Virus record (IMG/VR): IMGVR_UViG_3300008954_000025
Span: 1 to 64,000 of that record
Reading direction: 5' to 3' (one strand)
Origin: a virus
DNA length: 64,000 bases
In this document: piece by piece, positions 11,917-29,981 of the stretch
How positions within the stretch are numbered: the stretch's first letter is position 1
Layout of the letters: every line of letters starts with the position of its first letter
Made by a program: the position numbers and the translations under genes
Notes under the pieces: generated by a model
Database searches by the model: none
Seen by the model: only the letters and a program-made list of their open reading frames with translations
What the model was told of the DNA's origin: nothing

Positions 11917-11919
11917 GCC

Positions 11920-12894: not shown

Positions 12895-13160
12895 TGTCCG
12901 TGCACGTTCCCACGAAGCTGGTGCTCGGCGCCGACGACCTCGGGTCGATTCGGTGTCCCGGGTGTAAGAACAAGGCGCTGCAGAAGTCGTCCGACGGTGC
13001 GCTGACCCTGCGGCCCAAAGGCCCGGTGCGTTTCGAGGACGACCGCTGCTTCATGAAGTGCTTCCACTGCGACCGCTCGATCGAGCTGCCGCTGGCGCTG
13101 GCCAAGAGCGAAGACGCCGCCCCTGCGCGGGTCGTGCTTCGCATGCCCGCGCACCGCTGA
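12894..13160 (+). CDS. Small zinc-ribbon protein
   Basis: CPGC...CFHC; LQKS and LAKS motifs; TAGTG coupling. Confidence 0.7.
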   Translation: MSVHVPTKLVLGADDLGSIRCPGCKNKALQKSSDGALTLRPKGPVRFEDDRCFMKCFHCDRSIELPLALAKSEDAAPARVVLRMPAHR

Positions 13161-13184
13161 CGGTCGGGGCGCAAAACGCCCAGC

Positions 13185-13214
13185 TTGACCGGACCCCGGA
13201 AACAACAGTAAGAC
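13185..13214 (+). promoter_or_regulatory. Sigma70-like promoter for protease-scaffold-capsid operon
   Basis: TTGACC(13185-13190)-18 bp-TAAGAC(13209-13214). Confidence 0.45.
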
Positions 13215-13220
13215 CGAAGA

Positions 13221-13330
13221 CAGGCTCGGTCGGGAAACGTCGTTCGCGCGGCAGATTCCGGAAAGGGGCGCAAGTGATGGTCTGGCACGGACCTCACCTG
13301 CGCCCCTTTTCCATTTTAAGCCGAGCCCGG
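13221..13330 (+). ncRNA. Structured 5' leader / candidate cis-regulatory RNA
   Basis: GGCTCGG(13223-29) pairs with CCGAGCC(13321-27), enclosing a CGGGA..TTCCG arm and a long hairpin GGAAAGGGGCGCA(13260-72)/TGCGCCCCTTTTCC(13299-312). Confidence 0.5.
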
Positions 13331-13337
13331 AGACGAA

Positions 13338-15061: not shown

Positions 15062-15107
15062 GCACCGTCGAAACGACTCGGTTCCAACGAAGAAGGAAGG
15101 AAACACG

Positions 15108-16559
15108 ATGCAAGGTCACAACATGGTGAGCTGGCGCGACTACGAGGGCGTCGACGGTCACGGGCAGGCAACTGTCCAGGACGTCGTCGAGCTCAAGAAG
15201 GCGCTGTCTGCGGGCTCGTCGATCAACGCGCCGGCGACGGCGGCCGGAGAGGGCTTCCCACTCCGCGTCGAGAGCCTGGAGCGGACGCTCAAGAACACCA
15301 CGTATCGGATGGAGCACATCCGGTTGTGGAAGAACATCCCGAAGGTGCCGGCCTACAACACGGTCGAAGAGTACAACCGGGTGAACGAGTACGGTGCCCA
15401 CGACCAGGGCGCCTTCATCCGAGAGGGTGAGCTCCCCGGCGAGACCGACGCGACGTACGAGCGGGTCTACGCGACGGTGAAGTACCTCGGTACTCTCCGC
15501 CGCGTCACCCACGTCATGAGCCTGGTCAAGCCGGCCCACGGGAACGTGATCGCGCAGGAGACGGTGGCCGGTACCATGTACCTGCTCCGTCAGCTCGAGC
15601 GCGCGCTGTTCTACGCGGACTCCACGCTGGACACCGACCAGTTCGACGGGTTCGAGGCGCTGATCGCGAACAACGCGCCGGCCACGCACATCATCGATCT
15701 GCGCGGGTCCCCGCTGACCGAGGACAACCTCATCGACGCGGCGCTCACCGTGCAGAACGCGCCTGCGTACGGCATCCCGACGCACCTGCACATCAACCCG
15801 GCGGTCAAGGCCGACCTCGTGAAGAGCTTCTTCCCGAAGGCGCGCTACGACCTGATGGAGAAGCCTGACGGGATGGTGGGCCTCAACATCAACGGGTTCA
15901 CCTCGCCGGCCGGCGACGTGAGGTTCGAGCCGAACGTCTTCATCGACGACGGCGGGCAGGTCCCGACGGCCGCGGTCGGCCCCGTGGCCAACATCCCGGC
16001 GACGCCGGCGCTCACCGTGGCTCCGGCCGCGGGCGGCGCGGGCACGGGGCCCTTGTGGCTCGCGGGCACCGGCGACCACGACGTGGGCGCGTACATCTGG
16101 CGCATCGTGGCGGTGAACCGCTTCGGCCAGAGCGCGTCCCGCCGGTTCCCCGCGGGCGCCGCGACGTTCACGCCTACGGCGGGTCAGTCGGTCACCATGA
16201 CCGTCACCGACGGTGGTGGACCGGCGGCGTCGTACTTCAAGGTCTACCGGACCTTGCGCGCCGGCGCGGACAACACCCAGCGGCTCATCCTCCGGGTGGC
16301 CAACGGCGGCGGCGGCGTGTTGGTCACGGACCTCAACGCGCGGCTCCCGCAGACCACGACTGGGTTCATGTTCCAGCAGGACAACACGAACATGTCGTTC
16401 GCCCAGCTCGCGCCCATGATCAAGGTGCCCCTGGCCATCGTCGACACGGCGATCCGCTGGATGCAGCTGATCTACGGAACGCCGAAGCTGTACACCCCGA
16501 ACCACAACGTGCTCTTCCGGAACATCGGACGCGCCGCCGACTTCGTCGGCACGCCGTAG
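15108..16559 (+). CDS. Major capsid protein with Ig/FN3-like insertion
   Basis: ELKKALSAG N-terminus, LRVESLE, EYNR..YG, E.ALFY.DS, QFDG, IIDLRG; insertion YIWRIVAVNRFGQSA...FKVYR; A511/K-type pattern. Confidence 0.93.
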   Translation: MQGHNMVSWRDYEGVDGHGQATVQDVVELKKALSAGSSINAPATAAGEGFPLRVESLERTLKNTTYRMEHIRLWKNIPKVPAYNTVEEYNRVNEYGAHDQGAFIREGELPGETDATYERVYATVKYLGTLRRVTHVMSLVKPAHGNVIAQETVAGTMYLLRQLERALFYADSTLDTDQFDGFEALIANNAPATHIIDLRGSPLTEDNLIDAALTVQNAPAYGIPTHLHINPAVKADLVKSFFPKARYDLMEKPDGMVGLNINGFTSPAGDVRFEPNVFIDDGGQVPTAAVGPVANIPATPALTVAPAAGGAGTGPLWLAGTGDHDVGAYIWRIVAVNRFGQSASRRFPAGAATFTPTAGQSVTMTVTDGGGPAASYFKVYRTLRAGADNTQRLILRVANGGGGVLVTDLNARLPQTTTGFMFQQDNTNMSFAQLAPMIKVPLAIVDTAIRWMQLIYGTPKLYTPNHNVLFRNIGRAADFVGTP

Positions 16560-16590
16560 AGCCCTGAACAGGGCCTGAGCACAGGGACAT

Positions 16591-16622
16591 GAGGGGGGCT
16601 GGCCGCGGGGCTGGCCCCCCTC
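16591..16622 (+). terminator. GC-rich hairpin after capsid gene (no U tract)
   Basis: GAGGGGGGCTGGCC-GCGG-GGCTGGCCCCCCTC. Confidence 0.45.
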
Positions 16623-16644
16623 ACCACCAAGGAGGAGACGCACG

Positions 16645-16998
16645 ATGGGTGCAGCCAAAAGCCAGCACATGGACGACTTCATCGGGGGCCTCAAGGACCT
16701 CGAGATCCAAAACCTCGTCGCCACGCAACAGCGCGGGCTCGGCATCCAGTTCGCCAAGGGCCAGTTCACGAAGACCGGCGGCGGCAACGAGACGGTCTCG
16801 CTCGGCGGCGACTTGGGCCTCACCGACATGGAGAACACCAGCTACCTGGCGCTCATGTTCGACCAGGCCAACGCCGTCGCCGTGCAGATCGGCACGACGC
16901 TCACCGTGGACGGCTTCGACACCGGCGCAGGGTTCGCGGGCGGCGAAACGATCGACGTCCTGATCATCGGCCAAATCGAAGACCACCCCGACCCGTAG
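16645..16998 (+). CDS. Probable head decoration protein
   Basis: AAGGAGG RBS; small beta-rich ORF directly after capsid gene. Confidence 0.65.
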   Translation: MGAAKSQHMDDFIGGLKDLEIQNLVATQQRGLGIQFAKGQFTKTGGGNETVSLGGDLGLTDMENTSYLALMFDQANAVAVQIGTTLTVDGFDTGAGFAGGETIDVLIIGQIEDHPDP

Positions 16999-17031
16999 GC
17001 GAGCAGCGAGCTCTCCTGCTAAGGTGACACC

Positions 17032-17358
17032 ATGTCTGCGATCGGACTCAGGGGACACCAACCGCGCACGCGGCGGTTCACCGCGGCCGTTGCGCCAGCG
17101 ACCGCCGCAGACGCGATCGTGCGGCGCGACGCGCCGCAGGCGACGTCGCACCTCCAGATCCGGAACGAAGAGGCCGCAGGCGGCAACAGCCTGCGCGTCT
17201 ACTGGACCGAAGCGGACTTCGACGCCAACGCCAACTTCTTCACGATTCTGCCGGCCTCCGAGTACGAGGGGCCGGCCGAGGTGAAGGAGTTCTGGGTCCG
17301 GTCAGTCGGCGGAGCCATCGCCGGTGCGGTCGCCATCTTCTACACGCGAAGAGGCTAG
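17032..17358 (+). CDS. Probable small virion structural protein
   Basis: Beta-rich ORF (HLQIRNE..SLRVYW); TG-C-TAAGGT 6 nt upstream. Confidence 0.65.
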   Translation: MSAIGLRGHQPRTRRFTAAVAPATAADAIVRRDAPQATSHLQIRNEEAAGGNSLRVYWTEADFDANANFFTILPASEYEGPAEVKEFWVRSVGGAIAGAVAIFYTRRG

Positions 17359-17360
17359 CA

Positions 17361-18119
17361 GTGGGCATCTCAGAGTCGACAACTGGCGGCGGCGGCGTAG
17401 CGACTGAAGCGCTCGACGAAGGCGTCGCGATTGCCGGGACTGACAGCACGCTGAACTTCACCGGCGCCGGCGTCACGGCGACTCAGGACGGCGGAGACCC
17501 CAACCAGGTCAACGTCGACATTCCCGGAGCGGCTGGCGCCGATCATGGCGCGCTGGTCGGGCTGGGGGATGACGATCACACTCAGTATCTTCTGGCCGAC
17601 GGTACCCGTGCGCTGTCCGGGGCGATGGACTTTGGTGGTGTTGCCCACACCAACCTGCTGAGCATCGCGATTACCAACGGCGGGCTGGCTGGCATCGTCC
17701 GCGGTATCGCCGACGCCGTGGAGATCGGCTCGACGTCGGCGCATGCGACGAGGCTCCTGGTCGCCAACGCGACCAAGCTCCAGGTCAACGCCTCGGTCCT
17801 GTCGCTGACCAGCATCGGCATCCGCGAGGAGCGGGTCGCCTTCGGTGCAGGCGCCAACGCGATTGCGGTCACGCAGTCGATCGTGGGCAAGACCGCCATC
17901 ACGGGCGGCGGCGATACGATGACGCTGCCCGCACCGGCGACGGCCGGCGACGGCTGGACGTGCTCGATCACGGACGAGAGCGGTGGCGCCGGTACGGACC
18001 ACATCACGGTCGACGTCTCGGGCGGCGGGACCATCAGCGGGCAGGCGTCCGTCGACATCACCGAAGACTACGGCTCGCTGACCGTCTACTGCGACGGCAG
18101 CAACTACTTCATCCGGTAG
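17361..18119 (+). CDS. Head fibre / whisker-like structural protein
   Basis: TLNFTGAGVTAT, DHGAL.GL.DDDHTQYLLADGTR and TLPAP...DE.G......I.V...YGSLTVYCDGSNYF motifs common in phage fibre proteins. Confidence 0.75.
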   Translation: MGISESTTGGGGVATEALDEGVAIAGTDSTLNFTGAGVTATQDGGDPNQVNVDIPGAAGADHGALVGLGDDDHTQYLLADGTRALSGAMDFGGVAHTNLLSIAITNGGLAGIVRGIADAVEIGSTSAHATRLLVANATKLQVNASVLSLTSIGIREERVAFGAGANAIAVTQSIVGKTAITGGGDTMTLPAPATAGDGWTCSITDESGGAGTDHITVDVSGGGTISGQASVDITEDYGSLTVYCDGSNYFIR

Positions 18120-18128
18120 GAGGCAACA

Positions 18129-18374
18129 ATGGCACGCGACAGGATCAACCTCGGCCGCACGGCCACTCCCGCAGGCGGTAGCTACATCGACATCGTCGGG
18201 ACGTCGGCGCAGTTCGATGGCGAGAACAACCTGGTGTCCTTGTCGGTTCGGTTCACGCTCGGTGCCGACCCGACCGAGTACGAGTCGACGACCTTCGCAC
18301 CCGGCACTTCGATGAATCAGCTCAGGCAGGAAGTTAGGCGGGTCGCCAAGCTCGCTGCGGAGGCGCTCGGATGA
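18129..18374 (+). CDS. Hypothetical protein
   Basis: AGGAGG RBS, coupled to next ORF. Confidence 0.65.
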   Translation: MARDRINLGRTATPAGGSYIDIVGTSAQFDGENNLVSLSVRFTLGADPTEYESTTFAPGTSMNQLRQEVRRVAKLAAEALG

Positions 18375-18709
18375 CCTACCTCGTCCCGGCACCAGCGACG
18401 ATGGTCGCGCCGTCCATCACGTCGGTCACGGGCACCGTCGAGACGTGGGTCGGCTCGGTCTACTTGCCGGTCCGCACGATCCCAACGATCCGCGCCTTCA
18501 TGGGCGAAGAGACAGCAGCCCACGATGCCTCGCTGCGTATTCGTCGTGACGCCGACGCGAGCATTCTGACGACGCTGACCTCTGGCGCGCTGCCGGCCGG
18601 AGTCACCGGCACGGACGTCGCGGTCGCGAACGCGGATTGGTACCACCTATATCTGTTCACGGACGACGCCGCCGGGGTGGCAATTTGCACCGGCGTGCGG
18701 TTCGAGTGA
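18371..18709 (+). CDS. Small structural/fibre-associated protein (has a disrupted paralogue at 22150-23819)
   Basis: ATGA coupling; similarity to the split copy confirms coding status. Confidence 0.75.
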   Translation: MTYLVPAPATMVAPSITSVTGTVETWVGSVYLPVRTIPTIRAFMGEETAAHDASLRIRRDADASILTTLTSGALPAGVTGTDVAVANADWYHLYLFTDDAAGVAICTGVRFE

Positions 18710-18721
18710 GGAAGAAGACTG

Positions 18722-19720
18722 ATGCCTGACCTGGAAAAAAGCTGGACCCACTCGATGGACGTCGATGTAACCGGCGCGAGCGCAGTGTTGACCGGCGCCG
18801 GTTGGGCTATCGCGTTCAAAGATCTGATGCTCGACACAGTCGAAGCGGACGGCGGCGAGTGGACGATCGAAGGCTGTAGCGACGGCGTCTCGGTCGACGC
18901 GACCGACCGTTGGGGCAGTGACACGAGCAAAGTGGTCTGGGACACGGCAGGCAACAACCACTCCTGGATCGAGCTGTCGAAGACGTATAGAGGCACCACG
19001 TACTACGTGATCCTGGACTGCGCCAACACCGACGGTGAGACCGTCACGGTCGTGTTCAGCCACACCGCCCCGTCAACCGGCGGCACGATCACGAATCGGC
19101 CGACCACGGCGGGTGCTTCGGCGTACACGTACACCGAGAAGGCCATCGACCACACTGGCGGACAGACCATGTATTTCCATGGCGGCAGGAATGAAGACGG
19201 TGGCTACTGGGTCTCGTCGGGCCGCACCGGACTCGACAACCTACCGCTGGCGTTCGTCTTCGCGACCTTGGAGACTCCGAGGACGAACATCGCCGATCCA
19301 TATGCGGTGTGGTTCGGCATCAAATACACCGAGGCGGTCAACGGCTCCTGGGAGCTGAACGACGCCGCCAACGGGTTGGCGGATGACACCAACTTCGGCA
19401 TGTTCGATGAGACGGGTGGGACCGACGCGGACGGGTGGGAGTCCTGCCCGGGGTACACGGCGCACCAGCATATCACCACGAACTCGCCAGCTTGCGCGGC
19501 CTTCCCGGCTGGCGGAGACGTGGTGGACGGTAGTTGGCCGACACTCCCTGTCCACATTTTCAATGGCGATGCCAACCAGTATGCGCTGCGAGGGCGCTGG
19601 GCCGACGTGTATCAAACTTCCGACGAGAGTCAGCTCGGCGGTGCGCCGACGGGCGGCCCCTTCACCCATATCGTCTGCGGCCATTTGGCGTTGCCCGCGG
19701 ACGCGGAGCCGACGCACTGA
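18722..19720 (+). CDS. Probable virion structural protein
   Basis: 332 aa T/G/D-rich ORF with RBS, within fibre cluster. Confidence 0.65.
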   Translation: MPDLEKSWTHSMDVDVTGASAVLTGAGWAIAFKDLMLDTVEADGGEWTIEGCSDGVSVDATDRWGSDTSKVVWDTAGNNHSWIELSKTYRGTTYYVILDCANTDGETVTVVFSHTAPSTGGTITNRPTTAGASAYTYTEKAIDHTGGQTMYFHGGRNEDGGYWVSSGRTGLDNLPLAFVFATLETPRTNIADPYAVWFGIKYTEAVNGSWELNDAANGLADDTNFGMFDETGGTDADGWESCPGYTAHQHITTNSPACAAFPAGGDVVDGSWPTLPVHIFNGDANQYALRGRWADVYQTSDESQLGGAPTGGPFTHIVCGHLALPADAEPTH

Positions 19721-19989
19721 TGCCTAACATGTACAACGACAACCACTGGGCGAGCACGCCGCTCAACATGCGGCAGTCGTCGGCGAGCGTTCGGTTACTG
19801 TCGACCGATCCAACGGGTGGCGGCTCGACGACGACGTACCACATGCGCGGTTGGGATGATGGCGGCGCACGTTGGGTAACGTGGACCAGTACGGACACAC
19901 CAGACACCAGCCCGGCCAGCGGCGACACCACGCCGAATTGGTCGGGGAGCCTGTCCGCGCCGCACGTCAGTTACACGGTCGTCGCGTGA
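19720..19989 (+). CDS. Small S/T-rich hypothetical protein
   Basis: TGATG coupling upstream, GTGA overlap downstream. Confidence 0.55.
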   Translation: MPNMYNDNHWASTPLNMRQSSASVRLLSTDPTGGGSTTTYHMRGWDDGGARWVTWTSTDTPDTSPASGDTTPNWSGSLSAPHVSYTVVA

Positions 19990-21404
19990 CCCGGCGGCCC
20001 ATCGAGGACTTCTGGCAGGTCCCGGACGGTGACGACTACGCGCCGGCTTTCGAGCGGGCGCAGCAGTCCATCCCTCCCGACGCACACATCGAGCTGGCCT
20101 TCAAGCCGAAGCTCTATCGGTGTTCGCGGAAGGTCGACCTGTATCGAGGCGTCGCGCTGATCGGACTGGAGTCTGTCGTTGGCGTGAAGGGCGACGCGAC
20201 TCCGCAAGGCGGGTTGCAAGCCGTCCCGACGCTGCACTTCGACAACCACAGCGTCGGCCTCGAGATCCACTATCCGGGGACGTACCTCCCAGAGCCCGAG
20301 GCGCGCGGCACCGTGACGATGCGGAACCTGGTCATCCACGGCTCAGGGCACATGTCCGGTCTCGACTTGCATGGCATCGTTGTCCACAACAGGCCCGTCC
20401 TCGACGGCATCACCGTCCGCGAGTTCGGCGGCGACGGGATCTATGCGTATTGCACGAGCCAAGTTCTTCCTGGCGGCGACGAGAACCCCGGCAACTGCAG
20501 CTTGATGAAGCTGACGAATGTTCGTCTGTACTTCAACGGCAACCGTGGTTTGTATCTCAACGGCGCCGACGCCAACGGCGGCGTGTTCGTCGGGCTCGAC
20601 GCCAACGCCAACGGGAAGGCCATGCCCGCTGGCGAGGCTGTTCAGATCTACGACTCGTCCTTCCTCGGGAACGTCTATATTGGCTTCCACATCGGCGGGA
20701 ACCAGTTCGGCGGACGTCCGTTCGTCACGGACAACGCGAACGCGCGGTGCCTGCTCCTCGGTTGTTACGTCGAGGGCATCGACGGGCTGTACATGGTCCC
20801 GCCGGCGATGTCGATCGGCGGCTTCTGCGGACCGCAAGAAGGCGCGACGACGCACGTCGACTCCGACCTGAACGGGTTGCTTCGGGTGAAGCCGGGCGTC
20901 ACGTGTATGAACCCGATGGGAGACAACACCATCGAGACGCGCCTCGGCTCGGCCAAGATCGGCAACGTCGCGCTGGAGCTGCTCGTCGACCAGTCGAAGA
21001 CTCAGCGCCTCCACTTCGCGCGCAAGAACCCCGGCTGGTGGGAGTTCATCGATTCCAACGCTGCAACCCTGATTGCATTCGCAGTGTCAACTGCGCTTGC
21101 GGCCGAGGGCCGTGGCCAGTTCTGGATGCCGAATGGCTTCTACTTCGGCGGCAGCGGTTCACCTCGCGGTAAGCAGCGGACCGAGCTGCGCGGCGGCATC
21201 GAGGTCGTCGTCACCGAGCTGGGCGGCGCCGTTCGTGCTGAGGGCTACGCCACGGCACCACCGCACGCTGGCGACTGGAAGCCTGGTGATAAGATCTGGA
21301 ACGCGGCGCCGACCGTCGGCGCCGTTACAGGCTGGGTCTGCACGGCGGCGGGCTCGCCTGGGAAGTGGGCGTCGCTAGGCACTGTCGGACCCGAGGAGCC
21401 CTAG
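19986..21404 (+). CDS. Right-handed beta-helix (pectate-lyase-like) spike/depolymerase-type protein
   Basis: N-terminal DGDDYAPAFERA, G/N ladder repeats (FGGDGIY, NGNRGLY), C-terminal W..GD.IWN......GWVCTAAGSPG.W. Confidence 0.75.
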   Translation: MTRRPIEDFWQVPDGDDYAPAFERAQQSIPPDAHIELAFKPKLYRCSRKVDLYRGVALIGLESVVGVKGDATPQGGLQAVPTLHFDNHSVGLEIHYPGTYLPEPEARGTVTMRNLVIHGSGHMSGLDLHGIVVHNRPVLDGITVREFGGDGIYAYCTSQVLPGGDENPGNCSLMKLTNVRLYFNGNRGLYLNGADANGGVFVGLDANANGKAMPAGEAVQIYDSSFLGNVYIGFHIGGNQFGGRPFVTDNANARCLLLGCYVEGIDGLYMVPPAMSIGGFCGPQEGATTHVDSDLNGLLRVKPGVTCMNPMGDNTIETRLGSAKIGNVALELLVDQSKTQRLHFARKNPGWWEFIDSNAATLIAFAVSTALAAEGRGQFWMPNGFYFGGSGSPRGKQRTELRGGIEVVVTELGGAVRAEGYATAPPHAGDWKPGDKIWNAAPTVGAVTGWVCTAAGSPGKWASLGTVGPEEP

Positions 21405-21407
21405 ACC

Positions 21408-21527
21408 GTGGGGCTCAAGAAGCCCGGGGCCGTCACCACGGACACGGCCAATCAGTTCGCCGGCGCGGATGACAAAGCCGTCCCGGTCTCGGCGGACCGG
21501 TTGCTGCTCGAAGACTCGGCGGCAGGC
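21408..21527 (+). pseudogene. 5' remnant of a phage fibre-type gene, fused in frame to foreign DNA
   Basis: MGLKKPGAVTTDTANQFAGADDKAVPVSADRLLLEDSAAG carries the K..P...D.LL.EDS fibre motif, then switches abruptly to a membrane protein. Confidence 0.55.
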
Positions 21528-22149
21528 GAGCCCCTCGCCGTATCTTCACTGGATGGCCTCGATCCGGAGCAGCGGGCGATCGAGCTCGGCAATCGCCTCC
21601 GAATCCGTTCGCCGGGCCTCGCTAAGGAGCTTCACGACGTCAGCCTGCGCCAGCTCGAGGACGAAGATCGGCGGAAGTCCGGGCTGGAGGCGAAAGCGTC
21701 CGGTCTCCTCCAAGCGGTCGGTATCTCGCTCGCGCTCCTCACCGCGTTTGGCGGCGCGATCATCATCAAACCCGAGTTCGTCGCAGCCCTCGGCTCCGCT
21801 GCCTGGTTCGTTCGATTCCTACTCCTCGCGGCGGTACTCGCCGGTATAGGGGCGGCGACCTGCGCTCTGCTCGCGCTCAAGGTGACGGAGTACCGCACGC
21901 TCCGCGACGAGGACGTGTTTAACGAGGAGTCTCTGCACGAAGCCGATTCCGCCTACAAATCAGACCAACCAGACACGGACAGGAACTCCGTCGCTTACTA
22001 CCACCGCTACATGACCATCGCCCACTGGCGGATCTACTGGTACGTCTTCGGGCTTCACAAGAAGAAAGCGAAGATCGTACGGTACGGCCAGCTGTGCTTC
22101 TTCGCGTTGCTCGTGTCGTTTGTGCTTCTCGCTGGGATGGTGATCCTGG
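21528..22149 (+). other. Foreign fragment encoding a 3-TM membrane protein (read as part of chimeric ORF 21408-22382)
   Basis: E..R...LEAKA..LL followed by three hydrophobic helices; codon usage differs from the phage; ORF tail after ~22150 is an out-of-frame reading of a phage gene. Confidence 0.55.
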
Positions 22150-22317
22150 GTGACGGAGACGCTGGTCGGAGCTGTGAAGCTGCCGCTGAACGCCAGCACG
22201 TCGATCGCGGCGTGGCTCGGCGAAGAGACCGGCACCTACGACGCGAACCTTCGGATCCGGAAGGCGAGCGACGCGACGGTCTTGACGACCTTGACTGCGT
22301 CCACCGCGATCAGCATG
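22150..22317 (+). pseudogene. N-terminal/middle remnant of a paralogue of 18371-18709
   Basis: ETLVGAVKLP...IAAWLGEETGTYDANLRIRKASDATVLTTLT versus ETWVGSVYLP...IRAFMGEETAAHDASLRIRRDADASILTTLT. Confidence 0.8.
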
Positions 22318-22407
22318 CTCACGTCCTCGCGCAGCTCGAATCGTATAGCTCCAGAGAATACGGCGCCGGAGGCGTAAGATGAACTCCGAGCGGTCGTCGG
22401 AGCGTTC

Positions 22408-23718
22408 GTGAAGCTGACGGACAAGGAGTGCGAAGCGATCCTCCGCGAATACGAGCTAGTCGCTGCCGAATCACGTGTCGGCGAACACGAGAAATCCGTC
22501 GTGCCCAACGAGGACGCTGTTGGGATCCCCAACCACTTCTCCGCCCGCCTTAGCGAGCTCGACATGCGAATGGTCCATGCGGTTCCCGAAGGCGGCAACT
22601 GGAAAGACATCCCAGAGTCGATCCCGTCGAAGCGACTCGATCAGATCCGAGAGAGCTTCAAGCGTGGTGAAGGCAGCCGCTCGACCTACTATGGGCGCCT
22701 GCGACACGACATGCCGTCGTATACGATCAACACGTACTTCAATCGCCCTGGCAACGGTTGCCATATCCACCCCAGCCAAGCTCGCGTCCTCTCGCAGCGC
22801 GAAGCAGCTCGGCTACAGAGCTTCCCCGATAGATTTCGATTTGTGGGCCCTCAGGGCATCGTCAATAAGCAGATCGGGAACGCGGTCCCCCCACTGCTGG
22901 CCTTCCAGATCGCGGGCCAGCTCGGCTCGCCTGGGGTCTTCGTCGACCTCTTCTCCGGAGCTGGTGGTATGGGGCTCGGGTTCAGCTGGGCTGGCTGGCA
23001 GCCCCTTGTTGCAAACGACATCGAATCGAGGTTCCTCGAAACATACAGCCAGAATGTCCATGACAGCGTGGTCCTCGGAAGTATCACCGACCCTGTCGTA
23101 CGTGCGGAGATCATCGAACGTGCGCAGACGTTGCGCGAGAAGCATCCCGACAAGCCGTTTTGGATTCTTGGCGGCCCCCCCTGCCAAGGGTTCTCCACGG
23201 CGGGGCACAAGCGCTCGATGAAGGATCAGCGTAACCACTTGTTCTGGGACTACTGCAAGGTGCTCAAGGAGCTTCGTCCGGATGGCTTCGTGTTCGAGAA
23301 CGTGACCGGTCTTCTGAACATGCAGAAGGGCAAGGTCTTCGAGATGGTCAAGGAGGCATTCAAGTCCCTCATGCCGAAGGTCGATGGCTGGCTGCTGTCG
23401 GCCGACGAGTTCGCCGTCCCCCAACGCCGGAAGCGGGTGTTCTTGATCGGCACGGTCGACCCAGATCATGAGGTTCGCCAGCCCCAACGGCTCACGACCT
23501 GTGAATCCAACGGTGAACTCTTCAGTGAGAACGAGCGCGCCGTGTCAGTCGGTGAAGCCATCGAGGATCTACCTGCGCTGAAGGCGAGCCAAGACGGCTC
23601 GGACTTGGCATACGATAGTCCGCCGAAGACGACCTATCAGGCATTCATGCGTGGTCGAATCGGTCCCGCTGAGTTTCTCGAGAGTGTAACCCGCTCCCGC
23701 GGCTGGAGCGAGGAGTGA
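22408..23718 (+). CDS. Circularly permuted DNA (cytosine-5) methyltransferase, Alw26I/Eco31I/Esp3I type
   Basis: Order TRD, IX (REAARLQSFPD), X (QIGNAVPP), I (DLFSGAGG), IV (GGPPCQGFS), VI (FENV), VIII (PQRRKRVF). Confidence 0.92.
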   Translation: MKLTDKECEAILREYELVAAESRVGEHEKSVVPNEDAVGIPNHFSARLSELDMRMVHAVPEGGNWKDIPESIPSKRLDQIRESFKRGEGSRSTYYGRLRHDMPSYTINTYFNRPGNGCHIHPSQARVLSQREAARLQSFPDRFRFVGPQGIVNKQIGNAVPPLLAFQIAGQLGSPGVFVDLFSGAGGMGLGFSWAGWQPLVANDIESRFLETYSQNVHDSVVLGSITDPVVRAEIIERAQTLREKHPDKPFWILGGPPCQGFSTAGHKRSMKDQRNHLFWDYCKVLKELRPDGFVFENVTGLLNMQKGKVFEMVKEAFKSLMPKVDGWLLSADEFAVPQRRKRVFLIGTVDPDHEVRQPQRLTTCESNGELFSENERAVSVGEAIEDLPALKASQDGSDLAYDSPPKTTYQAFMRGRIGPAEFLESVTRSRGWSEE

Positions 23719-23819
23719 TGTCTGGAACCAACGTGCCCGCCGCGGCGTGGTATGAGCTGTACCTCTATGCGAGCCATGCCGACGGGACCGCGATCTGCAG
23801 CGGGGTCATCTTCGAGTAA
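23718..23819 (+). pseudogene. C-terminal remnant of the 18371 paralogue (not in ORF track)
   Basis: MSGTNVPAAAWYELYLYASHADGTAICSGVIFE* versus DWYHLYLFTDDAAGVAICTGVRFE*. Confidence 0.8.
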
Positions 23820-24067
23820 TGCCTGAGGCGGCCATTGCGGCGCTCCGCTCGGTGTGGCCGCTCGTCGTGGCGACGCTGGCGATCGTCCTGAGTGTAGGCG
23901 CCGCGATCGGCTGGTGGCTCGTCCACCGGGGCGAGGCCACCAACGACGCGAGGCTCCGCGCAGAGCGCCGCGCCCGGATCCGCGAGGTCTTGGTCGCGTT
24001 CGATGTCCCGCGCGATCGCCGGGATGCCTGCATCGACGCGCTCGAGCGTCTTATGGCATCGTGGTGA
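23819..24067 (+). CDS. Small single-TM membrane protein
   Basis: TAATG coupling; WPLVVATLAIVLSVGAAIGWWLV. Confidence 0.6.
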   Translation: MPEAAIAALRSVWPLVVATLAIVLSVGAAIGWWLVHRGEATNDARLRAERRARIREVLVAFDVPRDRRDACIDALERLMASW

Positions 24068-24070
24068 CCT

Positions 24071-24304
24071 GTGCCGCACCCGTTCGTCCACGAACACGCG
24101 CCGACAATCAAGGACGTAGCGAAAATTCTCAACGTCAATGAAAGGACCGTCTATCGGCCGGTCCAACGGGGCGAGCTTCCGGCGTTCAAGGTGGCCGGTG
24201 CCTGGCGCTTGCTCGCCGGCGACGTCGACCGCTGGATCGACTCACAGAAGGCCGTCACGGCCGACGAGGCTGGTCGGATCACAAGCAAGGCGACCAATGG
24301 CTGA
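24071..24304 (+). CDS. Excisionase-type (HTH_17/MerR-like) DNA-binding protein, probably a chimeric foreign fragment
   Basis: TIKDVAKILNVNERTVYR...GELPAFKVAGAWR...DVDRWI. Confidence 0.75.
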   Translation: MPHPFVHEHAPTIKDVAKILNVNERTVYRPVQRGELPAFKVAGAWRLLAGDVDRWIDSQKAVTADEAGRITSKATNG

Positions 24305-24344
24305 CATCATGCCGGCGCATCAACGGTCCGCGCTCATGAAGCGA
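24297..24344 (+). pseudogene. vsr: First ~16 codons of a Vsr-like endonuclease
   Basis: MADIMPAHQRSALMKR resembles the Vsr N-terminus (MAD....QRS..M.R), then breaks off. Confidence 0.5.
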
Positions 24345-24345
24345 G

Positions 24346-24615
24346 GCCGCCCAGCTCGTCCACGCCGCCGGTGAGTCCGCCCCCGGCGACCTCCCAGCAG
24401 GAACCCACGCCGTCGTTCTCGCAGCAGACGACGCGCAGCTGTCTGCGCTCCGGGACCGACTGGAGCGTCGAGGCGTACCTCATCGTGCCGTCATCGAGGG
24501 CGATGGTGCTCACGCAGGACAGCTACTTGCGGTTGGTCTAGCGCCCGCGCCCAAGCGCGCCGTGCAGCGTCACGTGAGCAGCCTGCCGCTATTGTGGAGG
24601 CGCCAGACGACCTAA
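24346..24615 (+). pseudogene. Peptidyl-tRNA hydrolase Pth2-like gene lacking its 5' end (not in ORF track)
   Basis: AAQLVHAAGES...THAVVLA...L..L...L...GVPHRAVIE.D....GQLLAVGLAP.....V...SSLPLL; in-frame TGA at 24337 and no start codon. Confidence 0.75.
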
Positions 24616-24624
24616 CTAACTTCT

Positions 24625-24699
24625 GCGCGTGTAGCTCAGTTGGCAGAGCGCCCGGCCTAAGCAGTCGGGAGGTCCGAGGTTCGACCCCTCGCGCGCGCG
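24625..24699 (+). tRNA. Non-canonical tRNA: 6-bp anticodon stem, nominal anticodon AAG, short variable loop, no encoded CCA
   Basis: Acceptor GCGCGTG/CGCGCGC; D arm GCTC-AGTTGGCA-GAGC; CCCGGC-CTAAGCA-GTCGGG; AGGTC; T arm CGAGG-TTCGACC-CCTCG. Confidence 0.7.
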
Positions 24700-24724
24700 C
24701 TCGAGCCTTGTCGTCCGGACAGAA

Positions 24725-24940
24725 ATGTGGCAGCGTCCAGCTCGCGTGTCCGGACGGAAACCCAAGATCGGTCGTCCGCCGGGGTCCGAGTTCCCCGACC
24801 GCGTCGAGATTCGCGTGCGCGCCGGCGACAAGCGCGAGCTCGCGGCGCGCTACGAAGCCGAGAACGCTGAGCGGTCGCCGCGATACCGCTTCGCCTCCAT
24901 GGCGGCTTGGATGCGGCGGAAGCTCGGACTGCGGCCATGA
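24725..24940 (+). CDS. Small ribbon-helix-helix-like DNA-binding protein (start may be GTG 24746)
   Basis: GRPP...RVEIRV....K..L......SMAAWMR; ATGA-coupled to first glycosyltransferase. Confidence 0.55.
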   Translation: MWQRPARVSGRKPKIGRPPGSEFPDRVEIRVRAGDKRELAARYEAENAERSPRYRFASMAAWMRRKLGLRP

Positions 24941-26151
24941 CTCGTCGTCTGCTCCTGCACTGCGACTCGCTGTGCGCGAGCACCGGCTTCGCGGGCGTCG
25001 CGCGTACGATCATCGCCAACCTCGACGGCTGGGAGATCGACCAGGTCGGTATCAACCATCCCAACGCGCTCGATGAGCACGACCGCGTCCGCATCTACCC
25101 GACGCGCGGCCAGACCGACCACGGCGGGCAGCTCGCGTGCGACCTGTACCTGCAGCGCGACTACGACGTCATGCTCATCGTGCAGGACCTCCACGTCGGT
25201 GCGCAGTGGGCGCGCGGACTCCGGAGCGCGCAGGTGCAGCGCGCCCGCCAGGGTCGTAGGAAGACGCCCGTCGTCTTCTTGTTCCCCGTGGACGGGCCGA
25301 TGCTCGGCTTCACCGAGCTGGTCGACCTCGCCGACTGCGCCGTGAGCTGTACGCGATGGGGGCAGCGCGTAGTCGGTGCCCTGTCGACGTCCCGCGTGCA
25401 GGTCATCCCGCACGACGTCAGCAGCGACGCGTTCCACACGCTCCCCGAGGCGGAACGGGCGCGGCTGCACAGCAGCGTGTTCAACGTGGCGCCCGAGACA
25501 CTCACGCTGCTGTCGGTGGCGGTGAACACCATCCGCAAGGACTTGTTCCAGGTGCTCCAAGGCATCGCAGCGCTGAAGGCGCGCCGCGGTCCGGTCGCCA
25601 AGATCCACTTCCACACGCCCGGCGTGCATCAGGACATGAACCTCCGTCTCATGGCGTCGGCGCTGGACCTGGTGCAAGGCATCGACTACCAGATCGCGGA
25701 CCCGTCGCTGCTGGGCGCGCCGCGCGAGGTCATCAACGAGCTCTACAACGCCGCTGACGGGCTCGTGTTCGCGTCGCGGCGCGAGGGCTGGGGTCTGCCC
25801 ATGACGGAGGCGATGGCCGCAGGGACCGCGGTCGTCGCGCCCCGCTACGGGCCGTTCGAGGAGCTGCTGGCTCCGGACCGTGGGCTCCTGCACGAGCCTG
25901 CCGGCCAGATCTGGACTGACAAGGAGCACAGGGGCCCGTGCTGGTTGTCCGACCCGGAGGCCATCGCCGACCAGCTCGAACGCCTGCTGGACATGCGCGG
26001 GACGCCCGAGCATCAGCAGCTCCTCGAGCGCGCCCGCGCTCGTGTGCAGCGCTTCGCCCCAGAGATTGTGGCCGAGCGCTGGCGGAAGTTGCTGTACGAC
26101 GTCATGGACGGGCAGGAGCCGGCCCCGACGCCCGGCGAGGAGCTGTCATGA
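24937..26151 (+). CDS. Glycosyltransferase, GT-B fold (GT4-like)
   Basis: DS...TGF..V, N..RKD, LYNAAD....S..EGWGLP..EAMA.G. Confidence 0.92.
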   Translation: MTRRLLLHCDSLCASTGFAGVARTIIANLDGWEIDQVGINHPNALDEHDRVRIYPTRGQTDHGGQLACDLYLQRDYDVMLIVQDLHVGAQWARGLRSAQVQRARQGRRKTPVVFLFPVDGPMLGFTELVDLADCAVSCTRWGQRVVGALSTSRVQVIPHDVSSDAFHTLPEAERARLHSSVFNVAPETLTLLSVAVNTIRKDLFQVLQGIAALKARRGPVAKIHFHTPGVHQDMNLRLMASALDLVQGIDYQIADPSLLGAPREVINELYNAADGLVFASRREGWGLPMTEAMAAGTAVVAPRYGPFEELLAPDRGLLHEPAGQIWTDKEHRGPCWLSDPEAIADQLERLLDMRGTPEHQQLLERARARVQRFAPEIVAERWRKLLYDVMDGQEPAPTPGEELS

Positions 26152-27329
26152 CCGCGCTCTGGGCGCCCGTGCGCCGTGAGGCAGAAGGCCTTCCGCCCGT
26201 CCGCTTCTCGGCCGACTTCGCGTCGCCGACGGGCTACGCGAACGACGCGCGCATGCTGGCCTACGCGCTCATCCAGGCCGGCGTGGACGTGACGCTCGAC
26301 GCGATCCCGATGGACTGCGGGACTGCGCACTTCGGCCCCGTCGCCGAGGCGCTGCGCCCACACATCGACCGCGAGCTCGACGCGCCGATCCAGATCCTGG
26401 ACACCATCCCCAGCTTCTGGCCGCAGTACCGTCGCAAGGACGCGCAGCATGCAGTGGCGCGGCTCGCGTGGGAGACGGACACGACGCCGCCCGAGTGGGC
26501 TCAGCTCGCGCGGCGCTGCGCCATCGACGAGGTCTGGACGCCGAGCACGTTCAACCGAACCGTGCTGTCTGACGGCCTCCGAGCCCCCGGCTTCACGGTC
26601 CCGATGGCGCACGACCTGGACTTCATCGATCAGCACTCCGAGGGCCTGGATCTGCGGGAGCAGGGCGTCGCGAACGACGTCTTCGTGTTCCTGACCGTGG
26701 GGACCTGGATCAAGCGGAAGAACTTCGAGGGGCTGCTGGCGTCGTACTGCGCCGAGTTCGGGCCGGACGACGCCGTGTGTCTCGTGCTCAAGGTCAATAG
26801 CGGCCGAGTCGACGCCGCGGCGCGGGCGGCGATCGAGGCCGAGGTCGCAGACATCTTGATCAGCCTCGGCGCGGACCGCCGGCTGCCGCCGATCATCATC
26901 CTGCAGCAGCACCTGCCGACCGCCGAGATGATCGGCCTGTACCGGCGCGCGCAGTGCGGCGTGTTCCCGACGTTCGGCGAGGGTTGGGGGCTGCCCATCA
27001 GCGAGATGATGGCGTGCGGCACCTCATCGATCGTGACGGGATGGGGCGGCGTGCTCGAGTTCTGCGACGAGACGACGGCCTGCCTGCTGCCCTACCAGCC
27101 GACACCGGTACGCGGCATGCGGCCGATGCCGTGGTACGACGCGCGCCACAGCTGGGCCGAGCCGGATCTGTGCGCGCTGCGCGGGCACATGCGCTACGTG
27201 TTCGAGCACCGAGACGAGTGGCAGAAGACCGGCTGGGTCGCGAAGCGCCGCATCCAAGAGAACTACAACATGCGCGCCGTGGCGCTGCGGATGGTCGCGC
27301 GCCTGCGTGCGATCGCGGGGGGCCTGTAG
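26148..27329 (+). CDS. Glycosyltransferase, GT-B fold (GT4-like)
   Basis: TGYA..AR, WET, DEVWTPS.FN, RKN, P..GEGWGLP..E.MACG. Confidence 0.92.
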   Translation: MTALWAPVRREAEGLPPVRFSADFASPTGYANDARMLAYALIQAGVDVTLDAIPMDCGTAHFGPVAEALRPHIDRELDAPIQILDTIPSFWPQYRRKDAQHAVARLAWETDTTPPEWAQLARRCAIDEVWTPSTFNRTVLSDGLRAPGFTVPMAHDLDFIDQHSEGLDLREQGVANDVFVFLTVGTWIKRKNFEGLLASYCAEFGPDDAVCLVLKVNSGRVDAAARAAIEAEVADILISLGADRRLPPIIILQQHLPTAEMIGLYRRAQCGVFPTFGEGWGLPISEMMACGTSSIVTGWGGVLEFCDETTACLLPYQPTPVRGMRPMPWYDARHSWAEPDLCALRGHMRYVFEHRDEWQKTGWVAKRRIQENYNMRAVALRMVARLRAIAGGL

Positions 27330-28180
27330 TGCGCGTCGTGCTCGCCACCATCGCCTTGAACGAGGCGGAGTTCATCCCGCGGCAGCTCGCGCAGCACCTC
27401 GCTTGGCCGGGTCTCGTCGGCTGGGTCTGGGTCGAGGGCGCCGCCGAGCACTACGGCCGAAAGCACCCGGCGGCCGTGTCCCGCGACGGCCGCTCGGTCG
27501 ACGCCACGTCGCAGCTGCTGGCTGCGGCTGCGCAGCGCGACCCTCGCGTGCGGTACGTGGCGCACGGCTGGGCGCAGGGCGGTGAGCGGACGATGGGCGC
27601 CCAGAAGATCCAGCTCCGCAACGCCTACTGCACGGTCGCCGACGAGCTGGACGCAGACGTCCTGGTCGTCATCGACGCCGACGAGTTCTACACGCGAGAG
27701 GACCAAGAGCGGATCCTCGACCTCATGGCGATGCGCGGGGCGGACCACGACGCGTTCCTGTTCCGCCAGCGGCACCTGTGGCGGCCGCCGTCGCTGCTCG
27801 GCGACGAGGCGCGCTACGAGGTCACCGGGGGCTACTGGGCCGTACCGCACGTCCGCGTGTGGTGGTACGAGCGTGGCGCCCGGTACCAGAACCACAACCA
27901 CCTCGCGCTGCCGGGTCAGCGCTATAACCCGAAGCGTCTGTACCGTCCCGAGCCCGGCGACCCCGAGTGCGTGCACCTCGGCTTCGCCCGCGACCCGCGT
28001 CACCGACTCCGGACGAATGCCTACTACGTCGCCCGAGGCGAGGGCCGCGAGCGCGGCTTCAACCGTCAGCACTACGTCGACTGCCGCGAGGCGTGGGCGA
28101 CGTGGCTCCCGGACACCGCGCTGCCACAGGGCGCAAAGGTCGGCGCGTACGAAGCCGTGTTGCCGGAGGTGTTGCGATGA
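27329..28180 (+). CDS. Glycosyltransferase, GT-A fold (GT2-like)
   Basis: LNEAEFI, VEGA, S.DAT, IDADEFY (DxD), HLGFAR. Confidence 0.85.
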   Translation: MRVVLATIALNEAEFIPRQLAQHLAWPGLVGWVWVEGAAEHYGRKHPAAVSRDGRSVDATSQLLAAAAQRDPRVRYVAHGWAQGGERTMGAQKIQLRNAYCTVADELDADVLVVIDADEFYTREDQERILDLMAMRGADHDAFLFRQRHLWRPPSLLGDEARYEVTGGYWAVPHVRVWWYERGARYQNHNHLALPGQRYNPKRLYRPEPGDPECVHLGFARDPRHRLRTNAYYVARGEGRERGFNRQHYVDCREAWATWLPDTALPQGAKVGAYEAVLPEVLR

Positions 28181-28938
28181 CGCGGGAGGTCTGGCTGCGA
28201 TCCATCACCCGCGCCTTGACCTGGCGCGTGATCGCGTCGGTCACGACCGCGGTCATCGCCGTGGGCGTGTTGGTTGAGCGTGGCGCGGTGTCCCGCGCTG
28301 CGGTCCTCGGCGGCGCGCTGGCCGTCTTCGGCGCCGACTTCTTGGTCAAGCTGGCGCTGAAGATCGCGCATGAGCGTGTCTGGGCCGACGTGCGGTGGGG
28401 CCTCGAGCAGCGTCCAGGGTACATCGTGGCGCTGTTTGGCCTGCCATGCTCCGGCAAGACCACGATCGCGCGGAGTCTGGCGGATCTGCTCGACGAGCCA
28501 GGACGGACGGTCGTGCGACTGGACGGCGACACCCTCCGAGGCGAGGACGGGCTCTGCCGGGACCTGGACTTTTCGCAGGAGGGTCGGGCCGAGAATCTGC
28601 GGCGGACACGTTGTCTGGCTGCGGCGCTCGCCGACGCAGGCGCGGGCGTCGTCGTCGCGAACATCATGCCGTACGCAGCTGACCGCCAGTTGCTGCGCGA
28701 GGTGCACGCGCGCGTGCTCATGGTGCATGTGGACACGCCGGCCGATGTCTGCGAGGCGCGCGACGTCAAAGGCATGTGGAAGAAGGCGCGGACGGGTGAG
28801 CTCGCTGACTTCACCGGTGTCGACGCGCCCTTCGAGCCAGCGGCGGCGGGCGTAGTTACCGTCCGGTCGGTAGGTGCCACACCCGAAGCGTGCGCCGAAG
28901 AGATTCACGCAGTGCTCTGCGACCAGGAGTGGCTATGA
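28177..28938 (+). CDS. cysC: DUF2061 membrane domain fused to adenylyl-sulfate (APS) kinase
   Basis: RS..+ALTWR....T...HERVW..V.WG, then GLPCSGKTT, LDGD.LR, DL.FS...R.EN, CE.RDVKG, FTGVDAPFEP. Confidence 0.9.
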   Translation: MTREVWLRSITRALTWRVIASVTTAVIAVGVLVERGAVSRAAVLGGALAVFGADFLVKLALKIAHERVWADVRWGLEQRPGYIVALFGLPCSGKTTIARSLADLLDEPGRTVVRLDGDTLRGEDGLCRDLDFSQEGRAENLRRTRCLAAALADAGAGVVVANIMPYAADRQLLREVHARVLMVHVDTPADVCEARDVKGMWKKARTGELADFTGVDAPFEPAAAGVVTVRSVGATPEACAEEIHAVLCDQEWL

Positions 28939-29981
28939 CCGGTACGCGCATCGGCCTCGTCGGCTACTGCTGCCCGACAGGTCTCGGCTACGAGAACCGC
29001 CGCATGTGGAGCGGCCTGCCGGACGTGCGCTGGCTCGTGTGGCCGCACGAGCTGCTCGGCGTCGCTGACCTCGACACCTTGTCCGGCGACGGCGGCGAGC
29101 TGGACCTGTCGGCGGTCCAGACGGAGTCCAGCGTCGACGTCTGCGTCGATGCGTTCCTCGACGGCGTGGACGTGGTGGTCTGCGCCGAGCGGCCGTTCCC
29201 AGATGACTTGTTCAGCCGCGCACACGCCCGCGGCGTGAAGACCGTCCTGCTCATCAACCCGGAGTGGCGGGTCGGCGAGTCGTGGTCTGAGGCCGACGTG
29301 GCCGTCGCACGCACTGCCGTGTGCAAGCGCGTCGTGGAGCAGGTCACTGGGCGCCGCGACGTTCACCACATCCCCTGTCCGCTGGACATCGAGCAGCTGC
29401 CCTTCGCCCATACGCTCCGGGCGGACTGGGGCCTATACTCGCACGGCTGGGGCGGGGTGCACGACCGCAAGGGCTGGCCGACGATCCGCGCCTTGTTGAA
29501 CGTCTCGCCGACGGCACCAGTCATCGTGCGGTCTCAGCGCGTTCTCCTCGATTCACCAGTGCCGGTACACCCGGCGGTCGACTCGCCCGCAGATCTGTAC
29601 AGCCCGGACGGTGATGTTTCGGCTGACATCGCGATTCAACCGTCACGGTTCGAGGGTGTGGGCCTAGCCATCCTCGAAGCCATGGCGTGCGGCCTGCCGG
29701 TGCTCACGACTGACGCGCCGCCCATGAATGAGTACCTGCACGCAGCCTACGGTGACCTCGCGCACTACGCGCTGCTCGCTGTCGAACGCGTGGACCTCGT
29801 GCCCATGTGGGCGCCGTGGCCGTCGAACCTCGTGGAGCCGTCCGTCGTGGCGGAAGTTATGGCGAAGCTGCAGGCCGAACCGGACGTCGTCGCCGAGCTG
29901 TCGCTGCGCGGGCGCGCCTACGTCGTGAAGCATCACGGTGAAGCCGCGTGGGCCGCGCTACGGGAGGCCGTCATCGGATGA
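28935..29981 (+). CDS. Glycosyltransferase, GT-B fold (GT4-like)
   Basis: TGLG, DRKG, QPSRFEGVGL.ILEAMACGLPVLTTDAPPMNE. Confidence 0.9.
   Translation: MTGTRIGLVGYCCPTGLGYENRRMWSGLPDVRWLVWPHELLGVADLDTLSGDGGELDLSAVQTESSVDVCVDAFLDGVDVVVCAERPFPDDLFSRAHARGVKTVLLINPEWRVGESWSEADVAVARTAVCKRVVEQVTGRRDVHHIPCPLDIEQLPFAHTLRADWGLYSHGWGGVHDRKGWPTIRALLNVSPTAPVIVRSQRVLLDSPVPVHPAVDSPADLYSPDGDVSADIAIQPSRFEGVGLAILEAMACGLPVLTTDAPPMNEYLHAAYGDLAHYALLAVERVDLVPMWAPWPSNLVEPSVVAEVMAKLQAEPDVVAELSLRGRAYVVKHHGEAAWAALREAVIG

Follow-up and report, generated by a model that had tools for sequence, protein, structure and literature searches.

A dense mosaic of phage genes and restriction-modification gene fragments in a high-GC marine phage

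The DNA analyzed here (the window) comprises positions 1-64,000 of the 87.9-kb IMG/VR virus record IMGVR_UViG_3300008954_000025, an 87,892-nt JGI contig with a completeness estimate of 55%. Between positions 21408 and 24700 it carries a locus in which pieces of phage genes alternate with foreign DNA, including an intact open reading frame (ORF) for a circularly permuted C5 methyltransferase (MTase) and parts of genes for a membrane protein and for a helix-turn-helix (HTH) regulator. We consider it likely that this locus is a naturally circulating mosaic in a high-GC marine phage, built by illegitimate recombination at three coding sites. The evidence comes from a sister phage that retains the undisturbed genes, from independent assemblies that contain the same joints, and from a surviving full-length parent of the MTase.

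Sister phage and independent assemblies

Two sister contigs, L002 and L003, identical to each other in this region, were found by a search with the 510-aa protein encoded next to the locus. Four collinear blastn blocks (74-81% nucleotide identity, E 1e-37 to 0) connect them to the window: 12087-21417 corresponds to L002/L003 2086-11420, 22152-22307 to 11686-11841 (81% identity), 23729-24091 to 11872-12236, and 24700-28182 to 12505-15985. The three breaks between these blocks fall within a few bases of 22150, 22317/23718 and 24091. A first-pass annotation, made from the sequence alone, had proposed alignment to sister phages with intact genes as a check, and the sister is indeed collinear with the window except at three sites, which lie at the junctions that had been predicted. 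In the sister, an intact 183-aa fiber-like ORF (L002 11411-11962) is accompanied by a small transmembrane (TM) gene and a 95-aa ORF (L002 12216-12503), and the first two gaps both fall inside the 183-aa ORF. The start of the 183-aa protein, MGLTKP, resembles MGLKKP in the window, and its C-terminal half aligns with both pieces of a split domain there that has an intact paralogue at 18371-18709. The intact 183-aa protein and its 90% cluster are represented on 14 contigs from several sources. The collinearity with the sister and the intact 183-aa gene therefore indicate that the alternation of phage and foreign sequence is real and that the window state is derived.

All three sites have lost phage DNA relative to the sister, as had been proposed for inserts 1 and 3: 265 bp gave way to 734 bp at the first, ~21-30 bp to ~1,420 bp at the second, and 268 bp to 608 bp at the third. 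The proposal of three foreign segments is upheld both by this comparison and by GC content (0.60-0.63 for foreign and 0.66-0.69 for phage pieces). There appear to be up to nine novel joints within 3.3 kb, and each inserted block looks composite (1a+1b, 2a+2b and 3a+3b). The features of the locus, all on the plus strand, are as follows.

21408-22382, plus: chimeric 324-aa ORF from the ORF list, spanning three junctions
21408-21417, plus: start of the fiber-like gene (MGL-K-KP), from the end of the blastn block at 21417 and alignment with the sister 183-aa ORF
21418-21518, plus: piece 1a, ~100 nt, GC 0.68, phage-like
21519-22151, plus: piece 1b, foreign membrane-protein fragment lacking its own stop, GC 0.627, matching P0002
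22152-22307, plus: middle of the fiber-like gene (first half of its C-terminal domain, paralogous to 18371-18709), from blastn and paralogue alignment
22308-22375, plus: piece 2a, 68-nt leader, low GC (0.60); a contig of run X6 holds 22307-22374 with an unlike upstream
22376-23726, plus: piece 2b, 3' part of a fused N6A::C5 MTase gene (P0157 residues 519-965)
22408-23718, plus: intact 436-aa circularly permuted C5 MTase ORF, GTG start with GGAG upstream
23727-23819, plus: end of the fiber-like gene (last ~30 codons of the paralogous domain); sister homology resumes at 23729, paralogue alignment
23819-24067, plus: small TM phage gene, undisturbed, 78% aa identity to L002/L003
24071-24091, plus: first seven codons (MPHPFVH) of a phage gene that has 95 aa in the sister, from alignment with that ORF
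24092-24304, plus: piece 3a, HTH_17 regulator gene from about codon 2-3 (PF12728, E 1e-14)
24297-24344, plus: 16 codons (MADIMPAHQRSALMKR) overlapping the HTH stop, a possible vsr start, read from the sequence
24346-24615, plus: piece 3b, 3' two-thirds to three-quarters of a phage-type Pth2-like gene (PF01981)
24625-24700, plus: tRNA-Leu(AAG) (ARAGORN; Rfam, 51.3 bits)
18371-18709, plus: intact paralogue of the disrupted C-terminal domain, from the ORF list and alignment

The split domain can be rejoined. When 22150-22314 is joined to 23718-23819, an 88-aa in-frame product results that can be aligned along its full length to residues 23-112 of the protein encoded at 18371-18709, with a score of 205 against 133 and 86 for the separate pieces, and that also aligns with the C-terminal half of the sister 183-aa protein. 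The first-pass annotation had described this split and the restoration of the frame, and in that it was right. It had also assigned the fiber start and the middle and end of the paralogue to separate genes, but according to the sister they all belong to one gene (L002 11411-11962), so that its count of the phage genes hit was wrong.

A chimeric metagenome assembly, with joints absent from real molecules, had been named as the main alternative. Such a reading might be invited by a metagenome-derived viral contig of limited completeness whose joints fall within ORFs and coincide with shifts in GC, but the independent assemblies make it exceedingly improbable. The exact 324-aa chimeric ORF is present both on the 87,892-nt JGI contig and on a 50,059-nt ENA contig, and Logan has a variant from its cluster (5,524-nt contig). 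For the MTase, ENA has the identical sequence and JGI a 436-aa member of its cluster; for the HTH ORF, which spans the joint at 24091, ENA again has the exact sequence and JGI a 77-aa cluster member. Junction-spanning ORFs thus occur in assemblies from three sources, exactly in ENA and JGI and as a cluster variant in Logan. Logan contigs that bridge joints come from two studies, one of them represented by two samples. One contig of run X1 covers 20400-23687 and another 24013-24773; contigs of run X2 (21866-22405 and 23926-24219) bridge 22150/22307 and 24091; and a contig of run X5, from the other study (23401-23774), bridges the 23718-23729 joint with no mismatch. Depth is even across the stretch (~8.3 over X1), and samples that differ by a single-nucleotide difference at 22315 and a 3-nt indel at 23687 nevertheless carry the same joints, so that small population variants ride on one and the same arrangement. 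The occurrence of the same junctions in independent assemblies therefore argues against a chimera and, together with the sister comparison, bears out the phage/foreign alternation that had first been noticed in the sequence. Two other apparent joints, 20596 to 25307 and 21214 to 24676, had sides of only 22 letters and were disregarded.

The Logan contigs that carry the window come from marine metagenome runs, and the GC content of the window is ~0.68. Tail-fiber-like genes lie upstream of the locus, among them the gene for the 510-aa protein (19872-21404), which has a weak tail-fiber PHROG match, and a glycosyltransferase cluster lies downstream. Elsewhere in the 23 kb compared with the sister, the window alone has a whole APS-kinase gene (PF01583, E 2e-41) at 28182-28944; beyond this, the sister has a surplus of 520 bp, and there is one unequal replacement. 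Because the APS-kinase gene, the sole other window-specific gain, sits at gene boundaries, the in-ORF joints of the locus are unusual and probably young. When the TM gene was used to look for closer sisters, only L002/L003 came up again, and no near DNA relative of the locus was found in the phage collection.

The permuted methyltransferase and its fused parent

The ORF in the second insert encodes a protein that matches PF00145 (E 8e-61) and TIGR00675 (187 bits; cut-off, 100.65). C5 motifs I (FxGxG), IV (PCQ), VI (ENV), VIII (QRR) and X (GNAVP) can be read in its translation, and motifs IX-X lie N-terminal of motifs I-VIII, the order of a permuted enzyme. In line with this order, PF00145 matches the protein in two stretches, with profile positions 3-194 at residues 178-390, while the stand-alone permuted PADLOC model MTase_II PDLC03381 is matched end to end (positions 6-390 of 396). 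Permuted C5 MTases are a known hallmark of M.Alw26I, M.Esp3I, M2.Eco31IC and M2.BsaI (PMC5944983). The closest full-length relative, P0157, is a 965-aa protein in which an Eco57I-type N6A domain is followed by a PF00145 C5 domain; it belongs to the same 90% cluster as the window MTase, and from 22378 onward the window reads as P0157 residues 519-965 with 93.7% aa identity.

The operon from which such a protein comes can be read in relatives. In L005 (an Aliikangiella genome) and L084 (a viral contig), the ORFs comprise an HTH_17 gene, a fused N6A::C5 MTase gene and, convergent to the latter, a gene for an RE_Alw26IDE endonuclease (E 1e-192 or better), with Phage_GPD as a neighbor of the operon in L005 and Phage_lysozyme in L084. 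The window MTase resembles the Alw26I/Esp3I/Eco31I-type MTases (also M.BsmAI and M.BsmBI) in that it is permuted and in that its full-length relatives adjoin RE_Alw26IDE. It differs from them in keeping the C5 half only, cut at fusion residue 519, and in lying inside a disrupted phage gene. Neither an N6A domain nor an RE_Alw26IDE gene was found near the window MTase, which is therefore an orphan remnant of such a system.

Orphan methylases are well known in phages, as are mosaic joints. C5 MTase relatives occur in 839 phage records, the nearest annotated example being the putative cytosine-specific MTase of Thermus phage phiLo (46.6% identity). Like the orphan anti-restriction MTases of phages, the window MTase stands alone, with no partner endonuclease, but it is freshly cut from a fused gene whose full-length parent, 93.7% identical, is extant, and it interrupts a structural-type gene rather than sitting between genes. 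An intact ORF with a ribosome-binding site of its own, it is conserved from sample to sample. It is probably an orphan anti-restriction methylase, and it most likely modifies the phage genome and shields it from the cognate endonuclease. Two variants were seen among the samples: an A>G change at 22315 in run X1, and an in-frame 3-nt insertion behind 23687, near the MTase C terminus, in X2, X6 and part of the X1 depth. That the latter indel preserves the frame agrees with ongoing selection for the methylase.

The sediment metagenome of a third study, run X6, contains only the block 22307-23726, at ~98.6% identity and with both flanks unlike the window; that inserts 1 and 3 are uncovered there says nothing on the donor. 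The X6 flanks part from the window exactly at the boundaries deduced from the sister. On the X6 contig that matches from 22376, the 30 letters upstream translate to the fused gene just before residue 519, and the foreign MTase piece accordingly begins at 22376. The 68-nt leader is found in X6 on a separate contig, which breaks off exactly at the 22375/22376 joint and is equal in depth to the contig with the intact fused gene. In the window, the last base of the leader is the T of a TGA stop at 22375-22377 that was made at the joint.

Other members of this lineage (at least 90% cluster) that retain only the C5 half have been cut at other points. P0154 and P0156, both from Logan, start at fusion residue 491 with a new N terminus, and in L108, a phage contig with a terminase gene (phrog_38, E 1e-62), residues 1-13 are joined in frame to residues 548-960. 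The C5-only copies of P0154/P0156 and L108 are 94-97% identical to P0157. Together with the window copy, the C5 half has been cut out at least three separate times within a 57-residue linker, twice in phages, an observation that is new here. These recurrent cuts predict that C5 methylation of one strand would be enough to block the cognate type IIS endonuclease. In L108, an unrelated phage, the C5-only MTase (L108:5800-9098) lies between repeated intergenic elements and paralogous small genes (starts MDAKQTAFLTNQ and MNADQTAFLTNL), which looks like a cassette array that may favor gene exchange. Beyond the window, at 83,892-84,323 on the minus strand of the G000 genome (L190:1393-1824), there is an open frame with a canonical C5 motif IX/X-like sequence. 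It matches PF00145 only below threshold (E 0.03), lies in a patch of lower GC (0.56-0.62), and may be a second captured restriction-modification fragment.

The membrane-protein and regulator inserts

The first insert lies within the 324-aa chimeric ORF, which consists of the first five codons of the fiber-like gene, piece 1a, a membrane-protein core, and a 76-codon read-through that crosses the paralogue domain and the 68-nt leader out of the paralogue frame. Piece 1b is in frame with the phage start codon. Residues 38-248 of the chimeric ORF match residues 25-235 of P0002 (69% identity over 211 aa). An exhaustive search gave 289 representative relatives, and the conserved core of the family corresponds to P0002 residues 44-236, so the window copy holds the whole core. 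Piece 1a matches neither P0002 nor sister DNA, homology to which stops at about 21417-21424, and no protein relatives were found for the 40-residue N terminus of the chimeric ORF.

The membrane-protein family is rare, and a search for the protein in viral contigs and plasmids found none. Weak matches to PADLOC PycTM models were obtained for 6 of 40 family members (E down to 1.5e-4), in agreement with a lead from the Atlas; the window copy and P0002 themselves have no PycTM match, and the membrane protein has no match of its own in Pfam, NCBIfam, PHROG or PADLOC. Its AlphaFold model (pLDDT 85.7) has three long helices and no significant match in PDB or BFVD, where the best hits were BAR-like coiled helices (E > 0.07). 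The family faintly resembles PycTM in being a helical multi-pass membrane protein of ~200-300 aa whose relatives match the models weakly, and differs from it in that the window copy has no cyclase or nucleotide-binding part and no PDB/BFVD structural match.

In the third insert, the ORF at 24071-24304 consists of seven phage codons fused in frame to an HTH_17 domain (PF12728, 54.8 bits; cut-off, 27). The nearest relative of the HTH protein, P0166 (74% identity), begins MTPALTIKDVA, which places the joint of phage and HTH sequence at about codon 2-3 of the HTH gene. HTH_17 homologues (49-59% aa identity) lie upstream of an MTase homologue in five loci (L005, L006, L035, L009 and L084). The homologues of the HTH and MTase pieces therefore share one operon type, consistent with the suggestion of the first-pass annotation that two of the fragments are related to restriction-modification systems. 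The window HTH scores 56.7 bits against the NCBIfam MAD1 model (NF047737), short of the cut-off of 80, and is thus no MAD1 equivalog. It shares PF12728 with MAD1-like and other HTH regulators of restriction-modification operons, and its relatives have the same place upstream of the fused MTase, but the window HTH lies apart from and downstream of the MTase.

The 16 codons that overlap the HTH stop resemble, by eye, what we take to be a Vsr N terminus (RS..M), but this frame, only 16 codons long, has no PF03852 match even at E 10, and a Vsr-like gene was found nearby at only one of ~185 MTase loci. Vsr has a role in T:G repair beside other C5 methylases. In L084, a gene for an HhH-GPD glycosylase-like protein (E 3e-5; L084:2729-3553, minus strand) lies between the HTH gene and the fused methylase gene and, by analogy, may fill the T:G repair role.

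The rest of the replaced block has the look of phage DNA. The Pth2 remnant (GC 0.69, phage-like) matches PF01981 with 25.9 bits (cut-off, 23) over profile positions 48-115 of 115 only; it has no start codon upstream and is ~20-25 N-terminal codons short of its homologues. Fourteen viral loci contain longer, apparently full-length Pth2 frames, up to 63% identical, most of which adjoin a tRNA gene, often tRNA-Leu(AAG). Since the viral Pth2 homologues mostly lie by tRNA genes, Pth2 and tRNA form a phage-type module, and a common one. The tRNA-Leu(AAG) of the window is 76 nt long and lacks the long variable arm usual for bacterial tRNA-Leu, and its 3' end (24700) is the point at which sister homology resumes. 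In several other phage contigs, too, a Pth2-like gene is followed by a short tRNA-Leu(AAG) gene of this kind. The sister loci have neither a tRNA nor a Pth2 match, although the sister records are fragments, so that this absence says little. The truncated Pth2-like frame at 24346-24615 had been recognized correctly, but the start assigned to it (VPHPFVH) had not: MPHPFVH begins the sister 95-aa gene, which has no Pfam or NCBIfam match, and the N-terminal regions of full-length phage Pth2 proteins do not contain the motif. Likewise, the third foreign block had been taken to end at 24344, whereas by comparison with the sister the replaced block runs to 24700. For annotation in general, the 324-aa and 77-aa ORFs of this locus are a warning, being chimeras of phage and foreign codons.

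Origin of the mosaic

In the reading that we favor, the ancestor had the sister state, with the 183-aa fiber-like accessory gene, the small TM gene and the 95-aa gene, and foreign DNA replaced phage DNA at three sites within coding sequence of the window lineage. Piece 2b is the C5 half of a fused N6A::C5 MTase from an Alw26I/Esp3I-type type IIS operon, and piece 3a the HTH regulator that heads such operons, together with the first codons of the next gene. Because the operons of relatives lie beside phage lysozyme or GPD genes, the source may have been a prophage or lysogen met during infection. The absence of mobile-element hallmarks noted in the first-pass annotation was confirmed: the insert boundaries show no target duplications or terminal repeats, with inverted and direct repeat matches at chance level only; neither the ORF list nor domain searches of the region gave a transposase or integrase family above threshold, or a homing endonuclease domain; and Rfam, searched at E up to 1 for intron RNA, found the tRNA only. 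Loss of phage DNA without mobile-element hallmarks is what non-homologous or microhomology-level joining would give, and illegitimate recombination of this kind would account for the locus without a mobile element. The membrane core and the HTH domain, fused in frame to phage starts, may be expressed. The fiber-like gene, the 95-aa gene and Pth2 are destroyed. Their loss may be tolerated; the C-terminal domain of the fiber-like gene has an intact paralogue at 18371-18709.

Phage mosaicism and the acquisition of morons by illegitimate recombination are familiar from the Hendrix/Hatfull literature, in which joints usually survive at gene boundaries. The joints described here are similarly abrupt and free of mobile-element marks, with resident sequence replaced and a foreign GC content that differs from that of the phage. 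They differ in their density, in lying inside ORFs, and in a cargo that consists mostly of gene fragments.

Several points weigh against this account. At only ~80% identity, the sister leaves both the precise left boundary of insert 1 and the source of 21418-21518 uncertain, and the joining mechanism at inserts 1 and 3 (microhomology or blunt) is putative. The Pth2-tRNA module could have been resident already or have come in with the HTH piece. The link of the membrane protein to defense comes from weak PADLOC matches of relatives only; methylase activity, target site and protection are predictions; and the in-frame fusions at two of the three left joints could be due to chance (~1 in 9).

A stronger version of the history would derive everything from a single donor defense island, with a membrane effector, HTH, vsr and fused MTase genes, copied piecemeal in one repair or template-switching event. 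This version accommodates the phage pieces that lie collinear and on one strand between the foreign pieces, the common GC content (0.60-0.63) of all the foreign pieces, the single operon type of HTH and MTase, and the composite blocks, which template switching would give. Moreover, the joint at 22150-22152 is 5 nt upstream of a GAGAC, at the expected cutting position of an Alw26I-type enzyme. In the phage, however, the MTase piece is upstream of the HTH piece, the reverse of operon order, and the nearest relatives of the three foreign pieces are on three different short contigs, those of P0157 (JGI, 8,964 nt), P0166 (NCBI/Logan, 3,748 nt) and P0002 (ENA, 3,789 nt). Of the joints, at least six in number, only one has a GTCTC/GAGAC nearby, no more than chance would give, and the sites are not depleted (genome-wide observed/expected ratio, 1.05), so that GTCTC/GAGAC sites were dismissed as a sign of restriction-induced breaks. 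In addition, the same MTase lineage has been truncated independently in other genomes, and these truncations point to recurrent capture of the module rather than to a one-off catastrophe. We therefore regard a single donor and a single event as unlikely, though not far-fetched. Somewhat less likely again is that all joints arose in one repair or template-switching event during restriction by a prophage-borne Alw26I-type system, so that the phage copied pieces of its attacker, the protective C5 half among them.

The behavior of the X6 block might instead suggest that 22308-23726 is a self-mobile or homing cassette that inserted alone, inserts 1 and 3 being unrelated older scars. The block is ~98.6% identical in X6, with different flanks and the same two boundaries (22307 and 23726), and against the sister it forms a nearly clean insertion with ~21-30 bp lost. 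It contains, however, no endonuclease, transposase, terminal repeat, target duplication or intron RNA, and the X6 contig from 22376 reads upstream as the intact fused gene, which makes that boundary simply the point where the donor and phage copies part. The X6 contigs are also equal in depth, so the leader may lie elsewhere in the donor genome. A cassette of this kind seems to us quite improbable. That the locus decayed from a complete defense island, by one large insertion with later deletions, is hardly credible: phage lysozyme and GPD genes do accompany whole operon relatives in L084 and L005, and everything present in the window is a fragment, but the phage stretches 22152-22307 and 23727-24091 lie between foreign pieces in sister order and orientation, and interleaved collinear phage pieces cannot result from a single insertion followed by deletions.

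Illegitimate recombination at three coding sites thus remains the reading that we prefer. The methylase adds a new, truncated member to a known family, and the process is of a known kind, though unusually dense. What sets the locus apart is that its joints are so closely packed, that its defense cargo is fragmentary, that a near-identical parent gene survives and that the C5 half alone has been captured repeatedly. Should the joints have arisen together during restriction, the locus would document directly, in nature, how restriction can trigger the acquisition of anti-restriction genes. As it stands, with the parent gene at 94% identity, a phage gene that can be rejoined and an intact sister allele in circulation, it is a rare record of an early stage of gene capture.

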